Notes under the pieces: model-generated
Told to the model about the DNA's origin: nothing
The model's database searches: none
What the model saw: only the letters and a program-made list of their open reading frames with translations
Translations under genes and position numbers: made by a program
Origin: a virus
Taxonomy: Duplodnaviria; Caudoviricetes
Strand: one strand, 5' to 3'
DNA length: 64,000 nt
Virus record (IMG/VR): IMGVR_UViG_2823592041_000002
Location: 64,001-128,000 of that record
Shown here: positions 115-64,000 of the stretch, in pieces
Layout of the letters: every line of letters starts with the position of its first letter
Numbering within the stretch: position 1 is the first letter of the stretch

Positions 115-2532
115 ATGACATTAAAACTTCGAGCTTCTGGACAGGTTAAAAACCAGTCCGTACAGCTTTCGAATCTTGTAAATGTTTCTTCAGGTTCAAT
201 TCTGGGTAGATCAGAAGATGAATCCGGTGAAGGTGTTATGTCAGCACTTTCAGGTTCCGATGTAAGAAAAATTGCAGAATTACACAATGATGATAATGTT
301 CAATTTGCTTCAGCATCCTTAACAGGAGCTTTAACAGCATCTTCAAAAACACTTACAGGTGATTTAGCTGCTGCTGATGCTAACCTTTCTGGTGACTTAA
401 ATGCCACTGGAGATGTTGGCGGTGCAACCGCTACTATCTCAGGGAATTCCACCATTGGTGGAACTCTAGGTGTCACTAGTTCTTTAAGTGCTCAGTCTGC
501 TTCCATAACCGCAGCTATGTCCTCTGCTACCATCTCAACTAGTTCTGATGCATCTATTGGTGGAGATTTGACAGTTTCAGGAAACTTAACCATTAGTGGT
601 GACAGTGTCCAAGTAAATGTTGCAACTCTACAAATAGAAGATTCAATGCTAAAGATTGGGAAAGGGAACACTTCAGATACTATAGACTTAGGTTTCTATG
701 GTCTTTATAATGACGGTTCTGACAAGTATGCTGGTCTTTTTAGAGATCAGAGTGACTCTGGTAAGTTTAAGTTGTTTGATGGTATCACTAGTGAACCATC
801 TACAACAGTTGCGGATGTTTCCGGAAACAAAGCTACCTTATCTGCTACTATTGAAGGTAATATCACTTTTGATAATGCTAGAACTTTTTCTTTGAGTGGA
901 GATTTATCAGGTTCTCAGACTTTTGATGGTTCTGGAAACTGTGAAATTGATGCCACTATTGCTGATGATTCTATTGAATTTTCAATGCTTGGATGTGAAA
1001 TCGATGAAGATGACATGGCTTCCAATTCTGCATCACATGTACCTACTCAGCAGTCTGTTAAAACATATTCTGATTCTGAAATTTCATCTTTTGGTCAAGA
1101 TGATTTAGAGGCAAAAGATATGTTGATGGTTGACTCTACAGGTTCTTATGTTAAGGTGAAGGAAGTTAAAACTTATTCTTTAGTAAGTTCTGACGATGAG
1201 AGCAATGATTATGTGACAGTTTCAACAGAGATTGAATCTGAGTTTAAAGAATTATCTCAAGTTTATTTGAATGGTCAAAAATTGAGATATTCATCTGATA
1301 CTGGAACTTCCAATGATTATTGGATTACTGCTACCGATTCTGGTGCTACTAGATATGAAACTGCCTTAACCGCTTCCGATGCAGCTTCAAAAGATTTTTT
1401 TGGATCTGGTGTTGGACTATCTTCTGATGGTCTAGTTTTAGCAGTGGGTGCATCTAGATGGGAAGGTGCATCACCAAATAATCAGCAGGATCAAGGTGGT
1501 GTTTATATTTATGATTGGAATTCTGATAATGAAGAATGGGATCAAAGAGGTTCTGTTATAACTGCGCCAGATGCTGGGAATAACGATAGATTTGGTGCAT
1601 CTACTTCACTGAACTCTGATGGAACTATTATGGCAACAGGTGCTATGTTCTGGGACGATGATGAAACCAACCAAGGCGCTGCATATGTTTTCGAATATAG
1701 TGGAGGTTCATGGTCTCAGAAAGGTTCAACATTATCTCACGACAACCCTACAGCATCTGATTTATTCACTCATGTTTCTATAAGTGGAAATGGTTTAGTT
1801 CTATCTGTAGGCATTTACGCATACGATGGTTCAACGGGTACAGATCAAGGTGCAGTTTATGTTTATGACTGGAATGCTTCAAGTAATGACTGGGATGAAA
1901 GGGGTAATATATTGCTTCCGTCCGATCCTGCAGCTACAGATTACTTCGGTAGAGATACATCTTTATCGAATGACGGTTCCGTTTTGATTGTTGGCTCTGC
2001 TGCATGGGAAGGTGACACTACAAATCAAGGTGCTGTTTATGTTTATGATTGGACAGATACCGATAGTGATGGCACTGCTGATGCTTGGGTTCAGAGGGGT
2101 AATGTCCTAGAAACTGCTGGAAGTGAAGCAGTTAACGATTATTTTGGATTTTCTTGTCAACTTAATAGTGATGCAACTATTATGGCAGTTTCAAAATATC
2201 AACTTGTAAATGGTGGTGGAGATGAAGGTGAAGTTGAATTATATGATTGGAATTCTTCTACAAATTCTTGGGACTTGAGACTTACTATCTCAAATCCATA
2301 TCCAGCTACTTCTGGAACTAAAAACCAATATGGTTTTGGATATAAAGTTTCTATTGATGGTGATGGGGATGTTCTTGTTATTTCTGAAAGAGGTTCTGGA
2401 TATAATAACTTTGCTGGTAGAGTCCAAACATATTCAATATCAACAGAGGCTACAACAGATAAAATAAATTTTAATAATGGTGTAATATCTGAAAATGATA
2501 AATTGGAAATTAGCTATATTATAAAATCATAA
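115..2532 (+). CDS. Virion fibre/structural protein with an FG-GAP-type beta-propeller inserted in its C-terminal domain
   Basis: Gly/Ser/Ala-rich shaft (GDLTVSGNLTISG, TFSLSGDLSGSQTFDGS, PTQQSVK). About six F-G-x-S-x-S-L-x-x-D-G-x-x-L-x-V-G blades. Paralog of 2655..4133. Confidence 0.7.
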   Translation: MTLKLRASGQVKNQSVQLSNLVNVSSGSILGRSEDESGEGVMSALSGSDVRKIAELHNDDNVQFASASLTGALTASSKTLTGDLAAADANLSGDLNATGDVGGATATISGNSTIGGTLGVTSSLSAQSASITAAMSSATISTSSDASIGGDLTVSGNLTISGDSVQVNVATLQIEDSMLKIGKGNTSDTIDLGFYGLYNDGSDKYAGLFRDQSDSGKFKLFDGITSEPSTTVADVSGNKATLSATIEGNITFDNARTFSLSGDLSGSQTFDGSGNCEIDATIADDSIEFSMLGCEIDEDDMASNSASHVPTQQSVKTYSDSEISSFGQDDLEAKDMLMVDSTGSYVKVKEVKTYSLVSSDDESNDYVTVSTEIESEFKELSQVYLNGQKLRYSSDTGTSNDYWITATDSGATRYETALTASDAASKDFFGSGVGLSSDGLVLAVGASRWEGASPNNQQDQGGVYIYDWNSDNEEWDQRGSVITAPDAGNNDRFGASTSLNSDGTIMATGAMFWDDDETNQGAAYVFEYSGGSWSQKGSTLSHDNPTASDLFTHVSISGNGLVLSVGIYAYDGSTGTDQGAVYVYDWNASSNDWDERGNILLPSDPAATDYFGRDTSLSNDGSVLIVGSAAWEGDTTNQGAVYVYDWTDTDSDGTADAWVQRGNVLETAGSEAVNDYFGFSCQLNSDATIMAVSKYQLVNGGGDEGEVELYDWNSSTNSWDLRLTISNPYPATSGTKNQYGFGYKVSIDGDGDVLVISERGSGYNNFAGRVQTYSISTEATTDKINFNNGVISENDKLEISYIIKS

Positions 2533-2654
2533 TAAATAATGTGTTATATTATAAAAAATTTAGTTTTATAGTATGGTGAGTTTATATATAATTATGTGAA
2601 GTGAGAAATATATAATTAAATCATAATTTACATTTTTTTTAAAAGGAGAAAAAA

Positions 2655-4133
2655 ATGGCTTTACAAATTAAGGGTTCTTCCCAGATACAAAATGAATCTA
2701 TAAGTTTGAATAAAATTGCCAACGTCGCTGCTGGTAAAATTCTAGGTAGATCAGAAGACGAATCTGGCGAAGGTGTAATGTCTGCACTTTCTGGTGCTGA
2801 TATTAGAAAAATTGCTGAATTGCATTCTGACGATGCTGTTTCATTTGCTTCCGCATCTCTTTCTGGTGCTTTGTCTGCTGCTTCTGCAACTTTATCAGGT
2901 GATTTAGCTGCTGCTGATGCTAACCTTTCTGGTGACTTAAACGCTACTGGAGATGTTGGTGGTGCTACTGCTACTATCACTGGAAATGCTACTGTTGGTG
3001 GCACTCTAGGTGTTACTAGTTCTTTAAGTGCAGCTTCTGCTGCTATAACTAACGCAGTTACTGCTGCTTCCGCTACTTTGAGTGGAAACTTAGCTGCTGC
3101 TGATGCTAACCTTTCTGGTGACTTAAATGCTACTGGTGACGTTGGTGGCGCTACTGCTACTATCACTGGAAATGCTACCGTTGGTGGTACTTTGGGAGTT
3201 ACTAGTTCTTTAAGTGCTCAGTCTGCTTCCATAACTGCAGCTATGTCTTCCGCTACCATCTCAACTAGTTCTGATGCATCTATTGGTGGAGACTTAACTG
3301 TTTCTGGAGACCTAGTGGTTAACGGTGACAGTGTTCAAGTTAACGTTTCAACTCTACAGGTTGAAGATCCAATGATTAAATTGGGTCAATCAAACAGTGC
3401 TGACAGTTTAGACTTAGGTTTCTACGGTCTTTACAATGACGGTTCTGACAAGTATGCTGGTCTTTTTAGAGATCAGAGTGACTCTGGTAAGTTTAAGTTG
3501 TTCGACGGTATTACTTCCGAACCTACTGCTACTGTTGCAGACGTATCCTCCAACAAGGCAACTTTGGTTGCTACTATCGAAGGTAACATTACTTTTGATA
3601 ACGCTAGAACTTTTTCTTTAAGTGGAGACCTATCAGGTTCTCAGACTTTCGACGGTTCTGGAAACTGTGATATTGAAGCTACCATCGCTGCTAATTCAGT
3701 TGAATTCTCAATGCTTGGATGTGAAATCGATGAAGACGACATGTCTTCCAATTCTGCATCACATATTCCTACTCAGCAATCTGTTAAGGCTTATGTTGAC
3801 GATCAAGTTGCTTCCGCTGGACAGTCTGACTTAGAAGCGAAAGACATGTTGATGGTTGATTCCACAGGTGCTTATGTTAAGGTTAAGGAAATCATCGAAT
3901 ATATCGAGATTTCTTCTGCTAATGAAGCTGAAGTTTCTATCGAAGTTGAAGCTGAATTCGACGAATTATCTATGGTTTTCTTGAATGGTCAGAAATTAAG
4001 ATTTTCTGATGATGCTGGAACTTCCAACGATTACTACTTCGAGAATGATGGATCTGGAGATTTCAAGAAATTGTCCTGTGACATGTTCGAAGTTGGTGAC
4101 GAGATTGAAGTAAGATACTTCATCAAGTCCTAA
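2655..4133 (+). CDS. Virion fibre/structural protein, propeller-less paralog of 115..2532
   Basis: AAGGAG SD. Long near-identical stretches with the upstream gene. Internal 62-aa duplication. C-terminal VFLNGQKL domain. Confidence 0.7.
   Translation: MALQIKGSSQIQNESISLNKIANVAAGKILGRSEDESGEGVMSALSGADIRKIAELHSDDAVSFASASLSGALSAASATLSGDLAAADANLSGDLNATGDVGGATATITGNATVGGTLGVTSSLSAASAAITNAVTAASATLSGNLAAADANLSGDLNATGDVGGATATITGNATVGGTLGVTSSLSAQSASITAAMSSATISTSSDASIGGDLTVSGDLVVNGDSVQVNVSTLQVEDPMIKLGQSNSADSLDLGFYGLYNDGSDKYAGLFRDQSDSGKFKLFDGITSEPTATVADVSSNKATLVATIEGNITFDNARTFSLSGDLSGSQTFDGSGNCDIEATIAANSVEFSMLGCEIDEDDMSSNSASHIPTQQSVKAYVDDQVASAGQSDLEAKDMLMVDSTGAYVKVKEIIEYIEISSANEAEVSIEVEAEFDELSMVFLNGQKLRFSDDAGTSNDYYFENDGSGDFKKLSCDMFEVGDEIEVRYFIKS
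2880..3230 (+). repeat. Internal 186-bp (62-aa) tandem duplication
   Basis: ttagctgctgctgatgctaacctttctggtgacttaaa occurs at 2904 and 3090, an offset of 186. Confidence 0.85.
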
Positions 4134-8606: not shown

Positions 8607-9158
8607 ATGAAATCTTTAAAAGATCTGAAAGTTGTGGAGGAAGAGGAATCTATTGAAGCTAAGAATTCAAAGACTTTTTCTAATCTAAGAAAGAATTCTC
8701 AAGATGAAATTGTAGAAGCATCTAAAGTTGTTACTGGAAGAGACCAAGAAATAATTGACCAAAATTCTGTGGAAGTTATTGACGGTGTACAAGGTGATGA
8801 TAAATCTTTGGATGAACAAAAAAGTAAACCCAAAAAGAGGAAGAAAAAGAAAAATGTAATATCAGATGATAATAGGTCTACCCTACAATTGGAGGCAACA
8901 TCTAAAAAAGTTGAAGATGTATATTCTCTAATTGTTGAGTCTGTTGAAAAAAATAGAGATAAGAAACTATATTTTGAATCTGATGACAGTTCTTTTGTTA
9001 TAGACCCTAAAGTGTCTAAAATTATTAAAACTGTATACGAAAGTTTAAACAGAGATAATAGAAGAATTATGAGGGATAAGTTGAATGAAAATTTATCATC
9101 CTTCTGTAAAGTACTATCTTTTTCTATATGTAAATTGGGGAAGGTAGAAGAGAGTTAA
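8607..9158 (+). CDS. Prohead core-associated protein (gp68 position)
   Basis: Directly upstream of gp21; charged; MKSLKDL...EEE N-terminus. Confidence 0.45.
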   Translation: MKSLKDLKVVEEEESIEAKNSKTFSNLRKNSQDEIVEASKVVTGRDQEIIDQNSVEVIDGVQGDDKSLDEQKSKPKKRKKKKNVISDDNRSTLQLEATSKKVEDVYSLIVESVEKNRDKKLYFESDDSSFVIDPKVSKIIKTVYESLNRDNRRIMRDKLNENLSSFCKVLSFSICKLGKVEES

Positions 9159-27500: not shown

Positions 27501-28094
27501 ATGATAAATGTGATTTTTGATTTTGAATCTTTAGGGTTAAATGAAAATAGTGTATTGTTAAGTTTGGGTGTCCTAGCTTTTGACCCTAGTGATTATGATA
27601 TTGCTGGTGATGGTGTAGAGACAACGTTCAATAAACTTTTACAACAAGGTTTGTATATTAAACTTGACGCAAAAGATCAAATGAGAACTTATGATAGACA
27701 TATAAACAAGTCAACTCTTCTATGGTGGACTGAACAGAATGAAGAAGCTGGTCAAGTACTGAAAAGATGTGACGATGATGTTAAGCTTCCTGATATGGAA
27801 AACCTTCTGAATGAATATCTTGAAATGAACGGTGTTACAAGAAATACACCAGTCTGGTCAAGGGGTTATACAGAACCTATGTGGTATGAATCTGTAAAAC
27901 TCAATCTGAATACTTATGGATCGTTCAGACATTATCAGTATCGTGATATTAGAACTCTTTTGAATGTTTCTATAGAAGATAAATACTTGAGTAGAAACCA
28001 TATAAATACTATTGAACATCCTGTAAGTTTTATAAAACATAATGCTCTACACGATGTATGTTTTGATGCAGTTCAATTTTTATGTACTCAATAA
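27501..28094 (+). CDS. dexA: DEDDh 3'-5' exonuclease (DexA-like)
   Basis: FDFESLG, T..WW, VWSRG, RDIRT, HNALHD; GAGG SD before ATG 27501. Confidence 0.75.
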   Translation: MINVIFDFESLGLNENSVLLSLGVLAFDPSDYDIAGDGVETTFNKLLQQGLYIKLDAKDQMRTYDRHINKSTLLWWTEQNEEAGQVLKRCDDDVKLPDMENLLNEYLEMNGVTRNTPVWSRGYTEPMWYESVKLNLNTYGSFRHYQYRDIRTLLNVSIEDKYLSRNHINTIEHPVSFIKHNALHDVCFDAVQFLCTQ

Positions 28095-28100
28095 CTAAAA

Positions 28101-28139
28101 AAGTATTGACATTGTAGTCAATATTTGGTATTATAAATA
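28101..28139 (+). promoter_or_regulatory. Sigma70 promoter overlapped by an operator-like palindrome and a late TATAAATA
   Basis: TTGACA(28106)-17-TATTAT with TG; AAGTATTGAC-N6-GTCAATATTT inverted repeat; TATAAATA at 28132. Confidence 0.75.
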
Positions 28140-28177
28140 CTATATGTGAGAATAAAATACTTACGAGTGATAAAACT

Positions 28178-28235
28178 TAGGTTTACGTATAAAAGCTAAA
28201 AGACCTATTAATGTCGAAAGACGGAAGATTAAATT
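28178..28235 (+). promoter_or_regulatory. Structured leader, divergent copy A
   Basis: TAGGTTT-loop-AGACCTA, TTAA, TGTC-GAAA-GACG, purine-rich SD region, AAATTATG. Confidence 0.65.
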
Positions 28236-28742
28236 ATGAAGAATGTAATTATTTTAGGCGATGTTTGCACGTTTGATATCAATATTGAACATTTGTTTGA
28301 GTTAAACCCTTATGATGAAGATGAAATAGTGAGGCTTCTAGGGTTTCCAGAGGAGTTAATTCGATATTGTTCTGGGTTGATTCCATTACATGTTGTCAAT
28401 GCATTATACTCAATTCCAGATGATCAATATTCATTACAAACAATCGCTGATGAAATGGATTTATCTTACGGCAACATTATTTCAAAAAACATTGGTGATC
28501 TTAGTTATCTCGAATTGGGTAGTTGTGGGTTCAGTTCCAGTAGTTCCAAAAATATTTGGCAGAAATCTAAAATAGACACCAATGGTGTTTATAAAAGCCA
28601 TTGCGGCGATCCAGATTTAGATTACAAAATGAAAATAACCGACACAAACAATAAGTTTGAATTCATTTTATATCCATATTCGATAGTAGGATTAAGAGAT
28701 ATGAACAATCTGTCCGATTATAAGATAGCGAGATTTGATTAA
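28236..28742 (+). CDS. Hypothetical early protein
   Basis: 168-aa ORF behind a consensus promoter and leader copy A. Confidence 0.7.
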   Translation: MKNVIILGDVCTFDINIEHLFELNPYDEDEIVRLLGFPEELIRYCSGLIPLHVVNALYSIPDDQYSLQTIADEMDLSYGNIISKNIGDLSYLELGSCGFSSSSSKNIWQKSKIDTNGVYKSHCGDPDLDYKMKITDTNNKFEFILYPYSIVGLRDMNNLSDYKIARFD

Positions 28743-28762
28743 ATTAAAATAAATTTGAAAAA

Positions 28763-28796
28763 AAGTATTGACAAGTGATTGAATACTTGTTATAAT
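28763..28796 (+). promoter_or_regulatory. Consensus sigma70 promoter overlapped by an operator-like palindrome
   Basis: TTGACA(28768)-17-TATAAT(28791) with TG; AAGTATTGAC-N6-TTGAATACTT. Confidence 0.85.
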
Positions 28797-28814
28797 AGTA
28801 TATGTAAAAATAAA

Positions 28815-28874
28815 AAAATCTAGGTTTAAGTGTGAAAGCGAAAAAACCTATTAACGTTTAACGCAAAGGATAAA
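28815..28874 (+). repeat. 60-bp direct repeat / structured leader copy B
   Basis: Identical to 29070..29129. Confidence 0.95.
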
Positions 28875-28878
28875 AATT

Positions 28879-29052
28879 ATGGCTAGGCCAAAATCTAAAG
28901 AAACAATGGAAAAATTTACAATGTGTGTGCCGAAAGAAGATCTCAAAAGATATGAAGAGAACGGTGCTAGTATAGGATTGACACGCAATTCATATATCAG
29001 ATTTATGACACAATTAGGAGAAGAAACATACTCTAAAATGAGGAATAAATAG
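28879..29052 (+). CDS. Ribbon-helix-helix (CopG/Arc-like) DNA-binding protein, 57 aa, absent from the ORF track
   Basis: MARPKSKETMEKFTMCVPKEDLKRYEENGASIGLTRNSYIRFMTQLGEETYSKMRNK: RPK start, alternating beta strand FTMCV, helix, G-LTRNSYIR second helix; AAGGA SD. Confidence 0.75.
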   Translation: MARPKSKETMEKFTMCVPKEDLKRYEENGASIGLTRNSYIRFMTQLGEETYSKMRNK

Positions 29053-29069
29053 AAAAATTTACAATTGAC

Positions 29070-29129
29070 AAAATCTAGGTTTAAGTGTGAAAGCGAAAAA
29101 ACCTATTAACGTTTAACGCAAAGGATAAA
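29070..29129 (+). repeat. 60-bp direct repeat / structured leader copy C
   Basis: Identical to 28815..28874; ends just before ATG 29132. Confidence 0.95.
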
Positions 29130-29131
29130 TT

Positions 29132-30256
29132 ATGACGAATGTTAAATTTTTAACTTTTACGGATGCAGAATTTGAATCGTACATTGACGGTCCGTATGTA
29201 AAAAAGCTTTGGGATAGATACACCAGTCTTATGGATTTCAAGGACTGTATTCCCGATTTGGAGGATTCGGAACTTGTAAAGATTTATTGGATGTCTAAGG
29301 ACACAATATTGGAAGATTCCCATCTACATAGTACAGTTTTCAGACAAGCTTGTATTCGAGATGAGGATGTTGCAACCAATGAAAGTAGAGTCGCAACTCT
29401 ACGTGGCTCGTTTATTAGATCTGGATGGAGTCCAAATCCAGAAGAATCTATGCCTATCGTCGCATCCGATGGGCCAGGAACCCCATTAGAGTTTCAAGAG
29501 GGTCGAGGAAGAGTTCAGGCTAATATTGAGGGTGAAACACCTCAAGGTTGGATACCTGTTGCAGAGTTTAGAAAAAATAACCTAATACGAGATTCTCTTA
29601 CCAACAGTTTAAGATATGGTTTTTTAACCAATATAGTTGATAAACCAAAAACTGGTGCAAAGATGGATGACTACGTACCAGCTCTTATGAAAGCAATTAA
29701 AGCTGGTGTCGTGAATGAAAACTTGGAAGATGTGAAAAAATACCTGATAAATGAGTTATTGTTTTCAAAAGTGTTTCCTCACACTGCATCCGCAACCAAA
29801 ACAGCTAAAAAAGCTTTGAAGAGAAAATCTGAGTCTGAGTTCGTTTTAGAAAGGATGGAACTGGATGATGTTAAAGTTTGGGGTTCACGAAACCCTAAAA
29901 TAAAAAATCTATCTGGTAAAGTATTTTACATTCGTTCCAACAGTAGAAAGGCTTTAAATTCTGCCTTGGAAGAAATTTTACATTACTTGCTTAACAATCC
30001 TTATGAACATGTTAATATTGTGTTCTACACAACTGAGATAGTATACTCAAAAGCGAAAGAAGAAGTTCAGAAAGCTCAAAAACGAGTTGATGATTGGTGG
30101 AATAACTTTCATAAAGTTGCTTTTGCGAGTTTCTTTAGTGGTTCTAACCTTGTAGTCATTCCAGAAGCTAGGTACACTATTTTGGGATGTGTTCCTCAAT
30201 TTGTACTTAAACATGATATTAATGGGAACTCATTAGTCCCAATTAAACAGTACTAA
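29132..30256 (+). CDS. Hypothetical protein with putative ParB/Srx-like N-terminal domain
   Basis: L..SF...GW......PIV........EGRGRVQA resembles the ParB GxxRxxA arginine patch. Confidence 0.5.
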   Translation: MTNVKFLTFTDAEFESYIDGPYVKKLWDRYTSLMDFKDCIPDLEDSELVKIYWMSKDTILEDSHLHSTVFRQACIRDEDVATNESRVATLRGSFIRSGWSPNPEESMPIVASDGPGTPLEFQEGRGRVQANIEGETPQGWIPVAEFRKNNLIRDSLTNSLRYGFLTNIVDKPKTGAKMDDYVPALMKAIKAGVVNENLEDVKKYLINELLFSKVFPHTASATKTAKKALKRKSESEFVLERMELDDVKVWGSRNPKIKNLSGKVFYIRSNSRKALNSALEEILHYLLNNPYEHVNIVFYTTEIVYSKAKEEVQKAQKRVDDWWNNFHKVAFASFFSGSNLVVIPEARYTILGCVPQFVLKHDINGNSLVPIKQY

Positions 30257-30263
30257 TGCCATT

Positions 30264-30296
30264 GAGAGAGTGATCAACTTGATCACTCTCTCTTTT
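30264..30296 (+). terminator. Terminator / perfect 29-bp palindrome
   Basis: GAGAGAGTGATCAA-C-TTGATCACTCTCTC followed by TTTT. Confidence 0.8.
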
Positions 30297-30411
30297 ACTA
30301 GCCTTTTAATTAATAGTGTCATTTCTAATAGGCATAATTCTTGATATTTCACCCTCAAATATAGTATAATAGAATATAGTGAGAGACTAAATAGTTAGTG
30401 AGAGTTTTGAA

Positions 30412-31724: not shown

Positions 31725-32231
31725 ATGACAGTTTATAGACCTTTCACTGAGAAACTTGGAGCATCAGACCCAACAACTTTTATCGGTAATGCCGGAGAAC
31801 TTTTTTACAATGCGGATACTCAACAAGTTTTCATTTCCGATGGTTCAACTCCTGGAGGTATTCCAATTGCTGGTGGTGGTGGGGTTCAATCTTCAATAAC
31901 AGATGGAACAAGCACTTTATCTTTTGATAGTAATAATAGAATTTCAATAGATACTCACATTATACCAGACACTAATGCTGCTTATGATTTAGGTAACGCT
32001 GAATACAAAATAAGACACTTATTTTTAAGTGACAATAGTTTAACTATGGGTGATACAACTCTAAGTGAACAGAATATTATCAGAAGTGTCGAAATTGGTG
32101 ATGAACCAGCACCAAACGTTCCTAATGAGCCTGGGAGAAAAGGTGATATTAGGATTAGTCCTGAACACCTATATATCTGTGTTGAAGAGAATCAATGGAG
32201 AAGAGTTTCTTTAGATCCTGCTTGGGTGTAA
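31725..32231 (+). CDS. Short fibre-like virion protein
   Basis: G..GELFY......ISDGSTPGG, HIIPDTNAAYDLG.AE.KIRHLFLS, G.KGDI....HLYICV..N.W.R motifs of T4-like fibre segments. Confidence 0.6.
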   Translation: MTVYRPFTEKLGASDPTTFIGNAGELFYNADTQQVFISDGSTPGGIPIAGGGGVQSSITDGTSTLSFDSNNRISIDTHIIPDTNAAYDLGNAEYKIRHLFLSDNSLTMGDTTLSEQNIIRSVEIGDEPAPNVPNEPGRKGDIRISPEHLYICVEENQWRRVSLDPAWV

Positions 32232-32234
32232 TAT

Positions 32235-62226: not shown

Positions 62227-64000
62227 ATGTCAAGTAAAATGACAGGTGAAGATATAGGGATAAACACCTTAGATCCAAAAGTTAGACTGCACATCAATAA
62301 TGGTGCTGTTTTTGTCGATAGTGGTGGACTGAACCCAAATTCAACACCACTCAATTCTTATTACAATACTGGAAATGAAACCTCACCACAGATAATTCTG
62401 GGGAATGAATGGGCTTGGGATAGTACTCGTCAATCTAGTCTCTTCACCAAAATTAAAGCAAGAGTTATGAATTATAACGGTGGTGGGATGCGATTAAGTA
62501 TGAATGATGGGTCTCAACTTTATGACCATGCCAGTGGTCAATGGTTAGATAAAACATATGATTATGATGTTTATCCATCCCAATATTTGCATTTAAATAT
62601 ACTTTCAAATACTAATCAAGGAAGTGGGACATTACTTACTTGTGGTCTGAATGTTAGTGGAAACTATACTGGAAGTTTAAGTGGTGGTGATAGGTTATCT
62701 TTATATGCCGATGGTAGTTTAAAAATTACAGGACATTTAAGAATAGGTGATTCTCATGCTTCTGGGGGAACAAGTTATGGTCAAGGTTCTATAAGATATA
62801 ATAGTTCAACAAATGATTTTGAAGGGTTTACTAGTGAATGGAAAAGTTTAACTCAAAGTGGTGGACTTTCCAATACTACAACTACTTTGTTTTATAATAA
62901 GAGTATTGCAGTAAATGATGTATCAGGTGCTACCAATCAAGTATACGTATATGGGAAAGCATCTTCGAATCCGGATTATGTGGTGTCTGAATTTCAAGAT
63001 TTCAAATCAAATCATGATGACAAATACAAATTAGTGTTCTATAGTCAAGATGGTACGTCTGAGGTTTTAATCTCCGATTTGATAGATATTAATCCGTCAT
63101 CAAATAATTATTTTTATTTGCAATATGATGACCAAACAAATAATGACGGATATCATGCTGTTTATTTTGACGGAGATGATTTATATTATAGAGTTGGTTA
63201 TAGTGGTTCTACTGGTGGATCAAATACTAGATTTGCAACTTATAGAATAGAGATGCATAGCTATGCAGAAGCACCTTCAAATATATACACAAAATCTGAG
63301 GTGAATGCATTAATATCATCAGTTGCTACTGGTTCTGATGAGAGCGCTATTCTGTGGTTTCATTATCCAAATAATCATACTGGTAATCCGCAAAATGATA
63401 CAGCAATAATGGATGCTTTAAATTCAACATACCCACCTGCTGATTATTCACCACTAAAAAGGTTGATTTTACATACTAATGACCAAGAGGGTTCTGCTGG
63501 TGACACTCAATTTAGAAGTAAAGGGTATTTGTTTATCAGAAACCAAACTTTACTTCAGTGGGACTTTATAGATTTAATTGATAGCAATTTTGATTGGTCT
63601 TTGATAGAACCTCCAACACCTCCAACACCTCCAACTGCTGGAAATAATTTTATACATGTTGAATCTAATACAATAAATGTTGCTGATGGTACTACTCCAT
63701 CATATACAGTAGGTGGTTGGAATGTTTTAACTTTTGATGATTTGTTTCCAACTTTGACGGAAAATGCTGTATTTTTAGTAACATGTTATGTTCTTTGGAT
63801 TCCTATAAATGCTGGCCACAGTGTTTATTTTAGAAACCCTCACCCAAATGGTATTAGTGATAATAGTACACCATACACAAATGTAATTGATCCAAATGAT
63901 AGTGCATTTTTAATTAGAGGTCCAAATGGTGGGGGTAGTATGATGTTCACTATGGTTGCTGAAAGGTCTTCTGGTTCAAGTGTTGCAATAAAATATTGGC
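62227..64000 (+). CDS. Fibre/virion structural protein, truncated by the window end
   Basis: AAGGAG SD, ATG 62227; IGINT.DP...LHI, GSIRYNSSTNDFEGF..EW.SL, PPTPPTPPT linker; no stop seen. Confidence 0.7.
   Translation, partial: MSSKMTGEDIGINTLDPKVRLHINNGAVFVDSGGLNPNSTPLNSYYNTGNETSPQIILGNEWAWDSTRQSSLFTKIKARVMNYNGGGMRLSMNDGSQLYDHASGQWLDKTYDYDVYPSQYLHLNILSNTNQGSGTLLTCGLNVSGNYTGSLSGGDRLSLYADGSLKITGHLRIGDSHASGGTSYGQGSIRYNSSTNDFEGFTSEWKSLTQSGGLSNTTTTLFYNKSIAVNDVSGATNQVYVYGKASSNPDYVVSEFQDFKSNHDDKYKLVFYSQDGTSEVLISDLIDINPSSNNYFYLQYDDQTNNDGYHAVYFDGDDLYYRVGYSGSTGGSNTRFATYRIEMHSYAEAPSNIYTKSEVNALISSVATGSDESAILWFHYPNNHTGNPQNDTAIMDALNSTYPPADYSPLKRLILHTNDQEGSAGDTQFRSKGYLFIRNQTLLQWDFIDLIDSNFDWSLIEPPTPPTPPTAGNNFIHVESNTINVADGTTPSYTVGGWNVLTFDDLFPTLTENAVFLVTCYVLWIPINAGHSVYFRNPHPNGISDNSTPYTNVIDPNDSAFLIRGPNGGGSMMFTMVAERSSGSSVAIKYW

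Follow-up and report, generated by a model that had tools for sequence, protein, structure and literature searches.

Three consecutive genes of a virus in the IMG/VR collection are each preceded by a copy of the same short leader, and the question raised by this locus is what such a repeated sequence does. The DNA studied (the window) is a 64-kb stretch of the 137-kb record IMGVR_UViG_2823592041_000002 (record positions 64,001 to 128,000). Positions given below are those of the window unless stated otherwise, and the features described lie on its plus strand, as do almost all window genes. An earlier interpretation made from the letters alone (the sequence-only reading) had proposed a conserved cis-acting RNA element with two hairpins, the second of them maintained by compensatory changes. 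Our analysis leads, with moderate confidence, to a generic leader module that acts at the mRNA level and also supplies homology for the shuffling of gene cassettes, similar to the promoter-early stem-loop (PeSL) cassettes of T4-type phages.

The three-copy sequence repeat is real and far beyond chance. A repeat search recovered the perfect 60-nt direct repeat that had been noticed before (28815-28874 and 29070-29129, 100% identity; copies B and C) as well as the diverged third copy (A), and self-BLAST of the whole record returned the perfect repeat again. Copy A is 62% identical to B over the 73-nt reference copy, and in the region of the first hairpin (hairpin 1, 28178-28211 in A) 29 of 34 positions agree. 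One degenerate 34-nt pattern matched exactly three sites in the window, while none of 100 window shuffles gave any match. A covariance model built from the three copies (R1) found nothing but these copies, whether run over the window or over the complete record, with scores of 82.5 (A), 90.7 (B), and 95.3 bits (C).

Leader copy A occupies 28172-28235, copy B 28815-28878, and copy C 29057-29131, with hairpin 1 arms at 28178-28184/28201-28207 (including one U.G pair), 28821-28827/28844-28850, and 29076-29082/29099-29105, respectively. Each of the three unrelated genes has its leader on the mRNA strand, 28-30 nt ahead of the ATG; orientation and distance to the ATG are fixed, while the promoter is variable or missing. 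The placement at start codons reported before also held, as the copies stop 0 nt (A, ATG 28236), 4 nt (B, ATG 28879), and 2 nt (C, ATG 29132) short of the ATG. Shine-Dalgarno (SD) sequences are GGAAGA in A and AAGGA in B. The earlier delimitation was right for the core but too narrow at the 5′ end: A and C share about 20 further nucleotides there (28159-28177 and 29057-29075), which in C reach the last codons of the preceding gene, and their similarity also continues about 20 nt into the coding region. Copy C thus combines an A-like 5′ part with a core identical to that of B. Leader A has in addition a 5′-proximal hairpin, GTGAG-N9-CTTAC (28146-28164), that cannot form in leader B.

No described RNA family accounted for the leaders, as the sequence-only reading had supposed. 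At gathering score, Rfam matched nothing anywhere in the window; at E values up to 10 over 28050-29200, no match overlapped any leader copy. The hairpin 1 core had no homologue in IMG/VR, JGI metagenome contigs, or GenBank phages, in scans that were limited to exact patterns or BLAST. Pattern scans of IMG/VR with the shared 5′ leader segment and with the second hairpin in the form seen in copy A returned nothing, and blastn of this leader (type 1) and of a second leader type carried by relatives (type 2, see below) against GenBank phages gave nothing meaningful. We also collected 80 relative loci via the conserved neighbour DUF6267. Over these loci and all fetched contigs R1 found only the copies themselves and identical Tara/ENA duplicates. 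The repeated leader is lineage-restricted. Population contigs of the same phage were 99.7-100% identical and therefore contributed no leader variation. Two sets of candidates were discarded. Matches from the exact and gapped pattern scans of IMG/VR and the metagenomes were regarded as chance, since those inspected lie in coding sequence and scored at most 24 bits with R1, and weak R1 matches in three of the related contigs (L039, L077, and L078) fell inside a UvsX/RecA-like gene.

Copies A and B lie behind near-consensus promoters of the sigma-70 type. Promoter A (28097-28134, hexamers 28106-28134) has the form TTGACA-N17-TATTAT with 11 of 12 matches, a TG before the −10 and an A-rich stretch upstream; promoter B (28759-28796, hexamers 28768-28796) is TTGACA-N17-TATAAT and matches at all 12 positions. 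Copy C has no convincing promoter upstream, and none of the leaders is separated from its gene by a terminator. To compare leader lengths, the record was surveyed for TTGA[CT][AT]-N16-18-TA[TA][AT]AT with an open reading frame (ORF) of 40 aa or more no further than 250 nt away. The distance from the expected transcription start to the ATG is 95 nt at promoter A and 76 nt at promoter B, compared to about 0-35 nt for other matches just upstream of genes; three further matches with leaders of 39-76 nt were weak pattern hits. In relatives, type-2 leaders measure 102-106 nt and other cassettes 23-35 nt. With long leaders at promoters A and B and short ones elsewhere, the hairpin core is therefore a discrete addition of 50-60 nt to a leader that is short otherwise. 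Both promoters carry an A/T-rich palindrome over the −35 element, TATTGAC-N6-GTCAATA at 28104-28123 (A) and AAGTATT-N12-AATACTT at 28763-28788 (B). The −10 of promoter A is overlapped by TATAAATA (28131-28138), which is the T4 late-promoter consensus. Gene A might have both early and late transcription.

The relatives of this virus show how mobile the locus is. The window encodes RecA/UvsX-like, DnaB-like, Rv2179c-type exonuclease, DUF6267, and RegA proteins, and at the DNA level it is closest, among GenBank entries, to Methylophilales phage Melnitz, Pelagibacter phage HTVC008M, and cyanomyophages; the source is therefore an uncultured marine T4-like myophage. The three genes with their leaders and a terminator form a module of 2.2 kb (28095-30333) that the closest relatives lack in its entirety. 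In contigs L009 and L010, with a DUF6267 protein 96-97% identical, blastn joined the stop of the exonuclease gene directly to the DUF6267 promoter (window 28094 to 30334), while the same spot holds a different small gene in L008 and 4.4 kb of other DNA in L011. Considering this absence and the terminator at the end of the module, we therefore regard it as an accessory cassette in a hyperplastic spot.

Among the related loci promoters, leader cores, and genes occur recombined, and the leader is missing, replaced, or truncated while promoter and gene are kept. Homologues of the first gene (gene A) that are 77-91% identical stand behind other leaders. In L131-L133, promoter A and the same first ~26 transcribed nucleotides are followed by a type-2 core and a gene A homologue of 86% identity (gene A′), and a second unit consists of a promoter similar to B, a second, diverged type-2 copy, and an unrelated gene. 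In L134, promoter B precedes a type-2 leader and gene A′. In L129 and L130, gene A′ has neither promoter nor leader and follows a hairpin with a G5-loop-C5 stem. The type-2 core (L131:1000-1076 and L131:1669-1747, also in L132, L133, and L134) comprises the hairpins GTAATG-N12-CATTAC and GTCTC-N13-GAGAC and the SD sequence GGGAG, and cannot be aligned with type 1. Genes of one genome share a leader type, which differs between genomes. A homologue of the second gene, a ribbon-helix-helix (RHH)-like gene, encodes protein P0006 (86% identical) on contig L146, where the promoter lies outside the contig. Its leader contains the 5′-proximal hairpin, variants of which are also retained in the L131 and L134 leaders, and an A-type hairpin 2 with another loop (TGTC-GTCTA-GACG); hairpin 1 is missing from the 72 nt before the ATG. 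Finally, L143 (800-870) is a natural deletion variant: most of its RHH gene (143 bp) has been lost by a crossover within the 14-nt repeat GAAAAATTTACAAT (28909-28922 and 29052-29065).

The role of RNA structure had to be judged from few sequences. The stem TAGGTTT/A(A/G)ACCTA described before is present in all three copies, where RNAfold predicted the 7-bp hairpin 1 each time. The compensatory changes were not found, as no pair of hairpin 1 is altered on both sides. The second hairpin, thought to vary in sequence while keeping its pairing, proved not to be one homologous helix: A has TGTC-GAAA-GACG (28212-28223), whereas B and C have CGT-TTA-ACG, whose 3-bp stem and 3-nt loop RNAfold did not form. 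As B equals C exactly, only two independent type-1 sequences are available. Even with type 2 included the set remains small, and it contains no pair changed on both sides (9 pairs in 2 distinct sequences of type 1, 13 pairs in 4 sequences of type 2). The predicted type-1 fold is small, A/U-rich, and weak (about −7.6 kcal/mol).

Several of the results weigh against a generic structural leader that mediates shuffling. Folding z-scores of the type-1 copies are not significant (−0.4 to −1.0). Six of the seven hairpin 1 pairs are invariant and the remaining one changed on one side, from U-A to U.G. Hairpins of at least 3 bp occur in 38% of random 12-mers of this genome, and stems of at least 7 bp in 29% of shuffled 64-mers and in 53% of 64-mers drawn at random from the genome. 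The loop of hairpin 1 is conserved like the stem (4 changes in 20 loop nucleotides, 1 in 14 stem nucleotides), which would also fit recognition of the sequence by a protein. Moreover, the deletion in L143 used the 14-nt repeat and not the 60-nt leader repeat. With pairs that are invariant or changed on one side only, and with hairpins this frequent by chance, the covariation argument of the sequence-only reading therefore fails, while the repeat stands; structure is not established from the three copies alone.

Other evidence points to the RNA nonetheless. All four substitutions at stem positions (one in type 1, three in type 2) retain pairing via G.U, and do so on the mRNA strand only. By a rough estimate that depends on transition bias, the chance of this outcome is about 0.001-0.01, which is suggestive but no proof, three of the four changes coming from type 2. 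Type-2 cores fold well, with z-scores of −2.5 and −3.2. Together with the fixed orientation and distance to the ATG, the G.U-only changes and the type-2 folding suggest that the leader acts at the RNA rather than the DNA level. The proposal of a conserved cis-acting RNA element thus stands in one respect, as the copies are cis elements of 5′ leaders that all keep to the coding strand and to a constant distance from the ATG, but it does not stand for compensatory structure. A long-range pairing enclosing SD and AUG in copy C was dropped, as it is not conserved in A or B.

The three copies would best be explained as paralogous pieces of an early-gene cassette that, in its full form, joins a promoter of the sigma-70 type to a transcribed leader and a ribosome-binding site. 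The marine T4-like myophage would use it for the three genes of an accessory module located in a hyperplastic region. Hairpin 1 probably forms in the RNA and would act generically, either as a barrier to 5′-end-dependent decay or as an insulator giving unrelated ORFan genes the same exposed SD context. We consider it to be neither a ligand sensor nor a gene-specific switch. At the DNA level, the shared 60-75 bp may serve as homology by which phage recombination inserts, deletes, or swaps genes, as has been proposed for PeSLs, and the RHH gene between the 60-bp perfect repeats would be a likely product of such an insertion.

The same chance frequencies and z-scores favor a simpler explanation, in which the hairpins have no function of their own and the copies are duplicated or converted promoter-to-RBS (ribosome-binding site) DNA carried along in shuffling, with palindromes that are incidental or decaying. 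The identity of B and C, which reduces them to one observation, is compatible with it, and so is the dispensability of hairpin 1 in L146 and of the whole leader in L129. Two unrelated leader types at the same position, though, both fold into hairpin, hairpin, and SD; the four stem substitutions keep the mRNA-strand pairing; and the long leaders at two promoters, compared to the short ones at other intergenic promoters, point to a part that was added and retained. We therefore hold this explanation to be possible but rather doubtful. Only slightly less credit is due to hairpin 1 as a specific operator of a phage regulator, which we consider unlikely. It could be read either as RNA by a translational repressor or as DNA, with TAGGTTT-N16-AAACCTA bound by the RHH protein, and the three genes would then form one co-regulated, self-limiting module. 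The conserved loop sequence between A and B/C would be expected of such a site, as would the RHH-like gene within the module between copies B and C, and the centres of the two arms are 23 bp apart, about two helical turns. One leader type per genome, differing between genomes, is likewise what a cis site co-varying with its trans factor would produce. Nevertheless, the 86% identical RHH homologue in L146 has a leader without hairpin 1, and L131-L133 have no RHH gene between their two type-2 copies. For RHH autoregulation it is atypical that the repeat follows the start sites and that copy C lacks a promoter. Furthermore, the single stem change gives U.G on the mRNA strand and thereby breaks the DNA symmetry, and 5 of the 34 positions in the hairpin 1 region are not shared by A and B.

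Extending the operator idea, the long leaders of type 1 and, in relatives, of type 2 might be interchangeable RNA operators, each read by a phage-specific regulator that co-varies with it; we think this improbable. If it were true, sets of accessory early genes would be switched together, and a new class of phage cis-regulatory RNA would be spreading by cassette recombination. Sites downstream of early promoters are also known from processive antitermination, as in HK022 put and lambda nut. The position in early leaders, the repetition within one transcription unit, and the two adjacent hairpins recall such RNAs, or a small ligand-sensing riboswitch, but no terminator separates leaders and genes, and the structure is very small, A/U-rich, and weak and offers no conserved pocket-like junction. 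Neither Rfam at E values up to 10 nor the pattern and BLAST searches of IMG/VR, metagenomes, and GenBank phages provided a match or homologue. Accordingly, the orphan riboswitch once suggested finds no backing in a 7-bp stem with an A-rich 16-nt loop, which moreover is absent from the leader of the RHH homologue, and a riboswitch or antitermination RNA seems to us highly improbable. For explanations that we did not consider, barely any room is left. The preferred reading remains the generic mRNA-level leader with its additional part in cassette shuffling.

None of the genes served by the leaders matched a Pfam family. Gene A (28236-28742, 168 aa) belongs to no known family. The RHH-like gene (28879-29052, 57 aa), bracketed by the 60-nt perfect direct repeat, had no Pfam hit, while its protein-atlas features gave 0.93 to NikA, RHH_1, CopG, and Arc clusters. 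The third gene (29132-30256, 374 aa) represents an uncharacterised family; its protein had no word-index homologue, and exhaustive HMMER found about 30 distant homologues (22-29% identity), none of them with a Pfam family. The best of these (L147:2501-3541) adjoins a Dam-type methyltransferase and a RecA/UvsX-like gene and has an unrelated upstream region. The label ‘ParB-like’ given to this protein before received no support from Pfam or PHROG. A protein-based locus search of IMG/VR with the 374-aa and 168-aa proteins yielded nothing. The module is closed by a likely intrinsic terminator (30264-30296), a perfect palindrome with arms of 13-14 bp (30264-30292) and two TGATCA cores, followed by TTTT. 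Beyond it, directly after DUF6267, a second indel concerns a 168-aa ORF (31725-32231; window 31729-32233) that is missing from L008-L010, and TATAAATA is also present just upstream of this ORF (about 31693).

Repeated cassettes are not confined to this module. Another promoter/leader cassette family was found in four copies on the minus strand, 55-63 kb before the window start (record 1385-1440, 2837-2899, 3464-3520, and 8793-8855), with TTGAC(T/A)-N17-TAAGAT followed by a conserved leader; two of the four copies have a GGGGT...ACCCC hairpin and the SD sequence AAAGGAGAGAG. Cassettes of this kind are therefore habitual in this phage. Two further repeats were noted outside the cassettes. The paralogous-looking ORFs 115-2532 and 2655-4133 are linked by long internal repeats (window 198-3890, 85-93% identity, up to 699 nt), and a 64-nt perfect direct repeat with a spacing of 159 nt lies about 1.1 kb before the window start (record 62818-62881 and 62977-63040).

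Three known kinds of regulatory sites resemble the leader in part. Stabiliser hairpins in 5′ untranslated regions, such as those of the ompA and T4 gene 32 leaders, are classically placed at the very 5′ end. As in these, the leader hairpins here lie upstream of a single-stranded SD, and their sequence differs by leader type while the architecture is kept; hairpin 1, in contrast, follows about 17-37 unpaired nucleotides, and only GTGAG...CTTAC of copy A is near the 5′ end. If mRNA stability or translation turned out to depend on the transcribed hairpins, these would serve ORFan genes as natural insulator parts. The RegA protein of T4 uses unstructured sites overlapping the start codon. A homologue of this translational repressor is encoded by the phage (20769-21167; PF01818, 145 bits), and the 3′ ends of the leaders are A/U-rich around the AUG, with A and C similar for about 20 nt into the coding region. 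Judging from their base composition, the AUG regions of the three leaders could be RegA targets, but the repeated hairpin is located 28-58 nt upstream of the AUG, outside such a site. With the operators of RHH proteins such as Arc, Mnt, and CopG the locus shares an inverted repeat beside an RHH-like gene. Here, however, the repeat is in the transcribed leader and not over the promoter, it also precedes two other genes, and it is missing upstream of the 86% identical homologue in L146. If the hairpins were protein operators after all, they would constitute a new regulatory RNA.

The closest parallel is found in the PeSL cassettes of T4-type phages, and the passing remark of the sequence-only reading to this effect turned out to be its best-supported part, given the hyperplastic spot and the recombined promoters, leaders, and genes of the relatives. 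PeSLs consist of an AT-rich region, a sigma-70 promoter, a terminating stem-loop for which five placements at or near the promoter are described, and the SD with its ATG; they cluster in hyperplastic regions, and both indels of ORFans and mini-circles arise through them (Arbiol et al., 2010, PMC2839356; Comeau et al., 2014, PMC4122927). They were described from coliphages, an Aeromonas phage, and vibriophages (PMC2839356, PMC4122927), and the word cyanophage is absent from the 2014 paper (PMC4122927). The locus studied here is likewise hyperplastic, with a unit of about 100 bp that recurs between its ORFan genes; further shared traits are an AT-rich stretch and a near-consensus promoter with N17 spacing in copies A (11/12) and B (12/12), SD and ATG at the 3′ end of all three copies, and flanked genes that were inserted, deleted, or replaced among close relatives. 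Stem-loops of the G5-loop-C5 type follow upstream genes in L134 (1-60), L008 (3300-3330), and L129 (around 800-835), and in L134 and L008 they stand just before an AT-rich region and such a promoter, which is the classical PeSL architecture.

The repeated stem-loop itself departs from this scheme, and this too speaks against a simple assignment. It is located at about +17 to +66 inside the transcript and fits none of the five PeSL positions. Hairpin 1 has no T-tract and no G/C run, and a role in transcription termination is therefore unlikely. In addition, copy C has no promoter, a small second hairpin is present (in copy A also a 5′-proximal one), and either of two unalignable leader cores can follow the same promoters. 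As the hairpin sits deep within the transcript and shows no terminator features, the locus lacks the stem-loop that defines PeSLs; we therefore call it PeSL-like for its shuffling and not a strict member. With respect to shuffling, mosaic combinations of promoter, leader, and gene and an RHH gene between 60-bp repeats were seen here, while neither mini-circles nor a crossover inside the leader repeat were observed. Whether stabiliser or operator, the leader is a modest extension of known biology and introduces no new principle. What the locus suggests is that the plug-and-play logic of PeSLs also operates in uncultured marine T4-like phages, with an exchangeable unit that might be finer than the cassette, as promoter, leader core, and gene would each be swapped separately.

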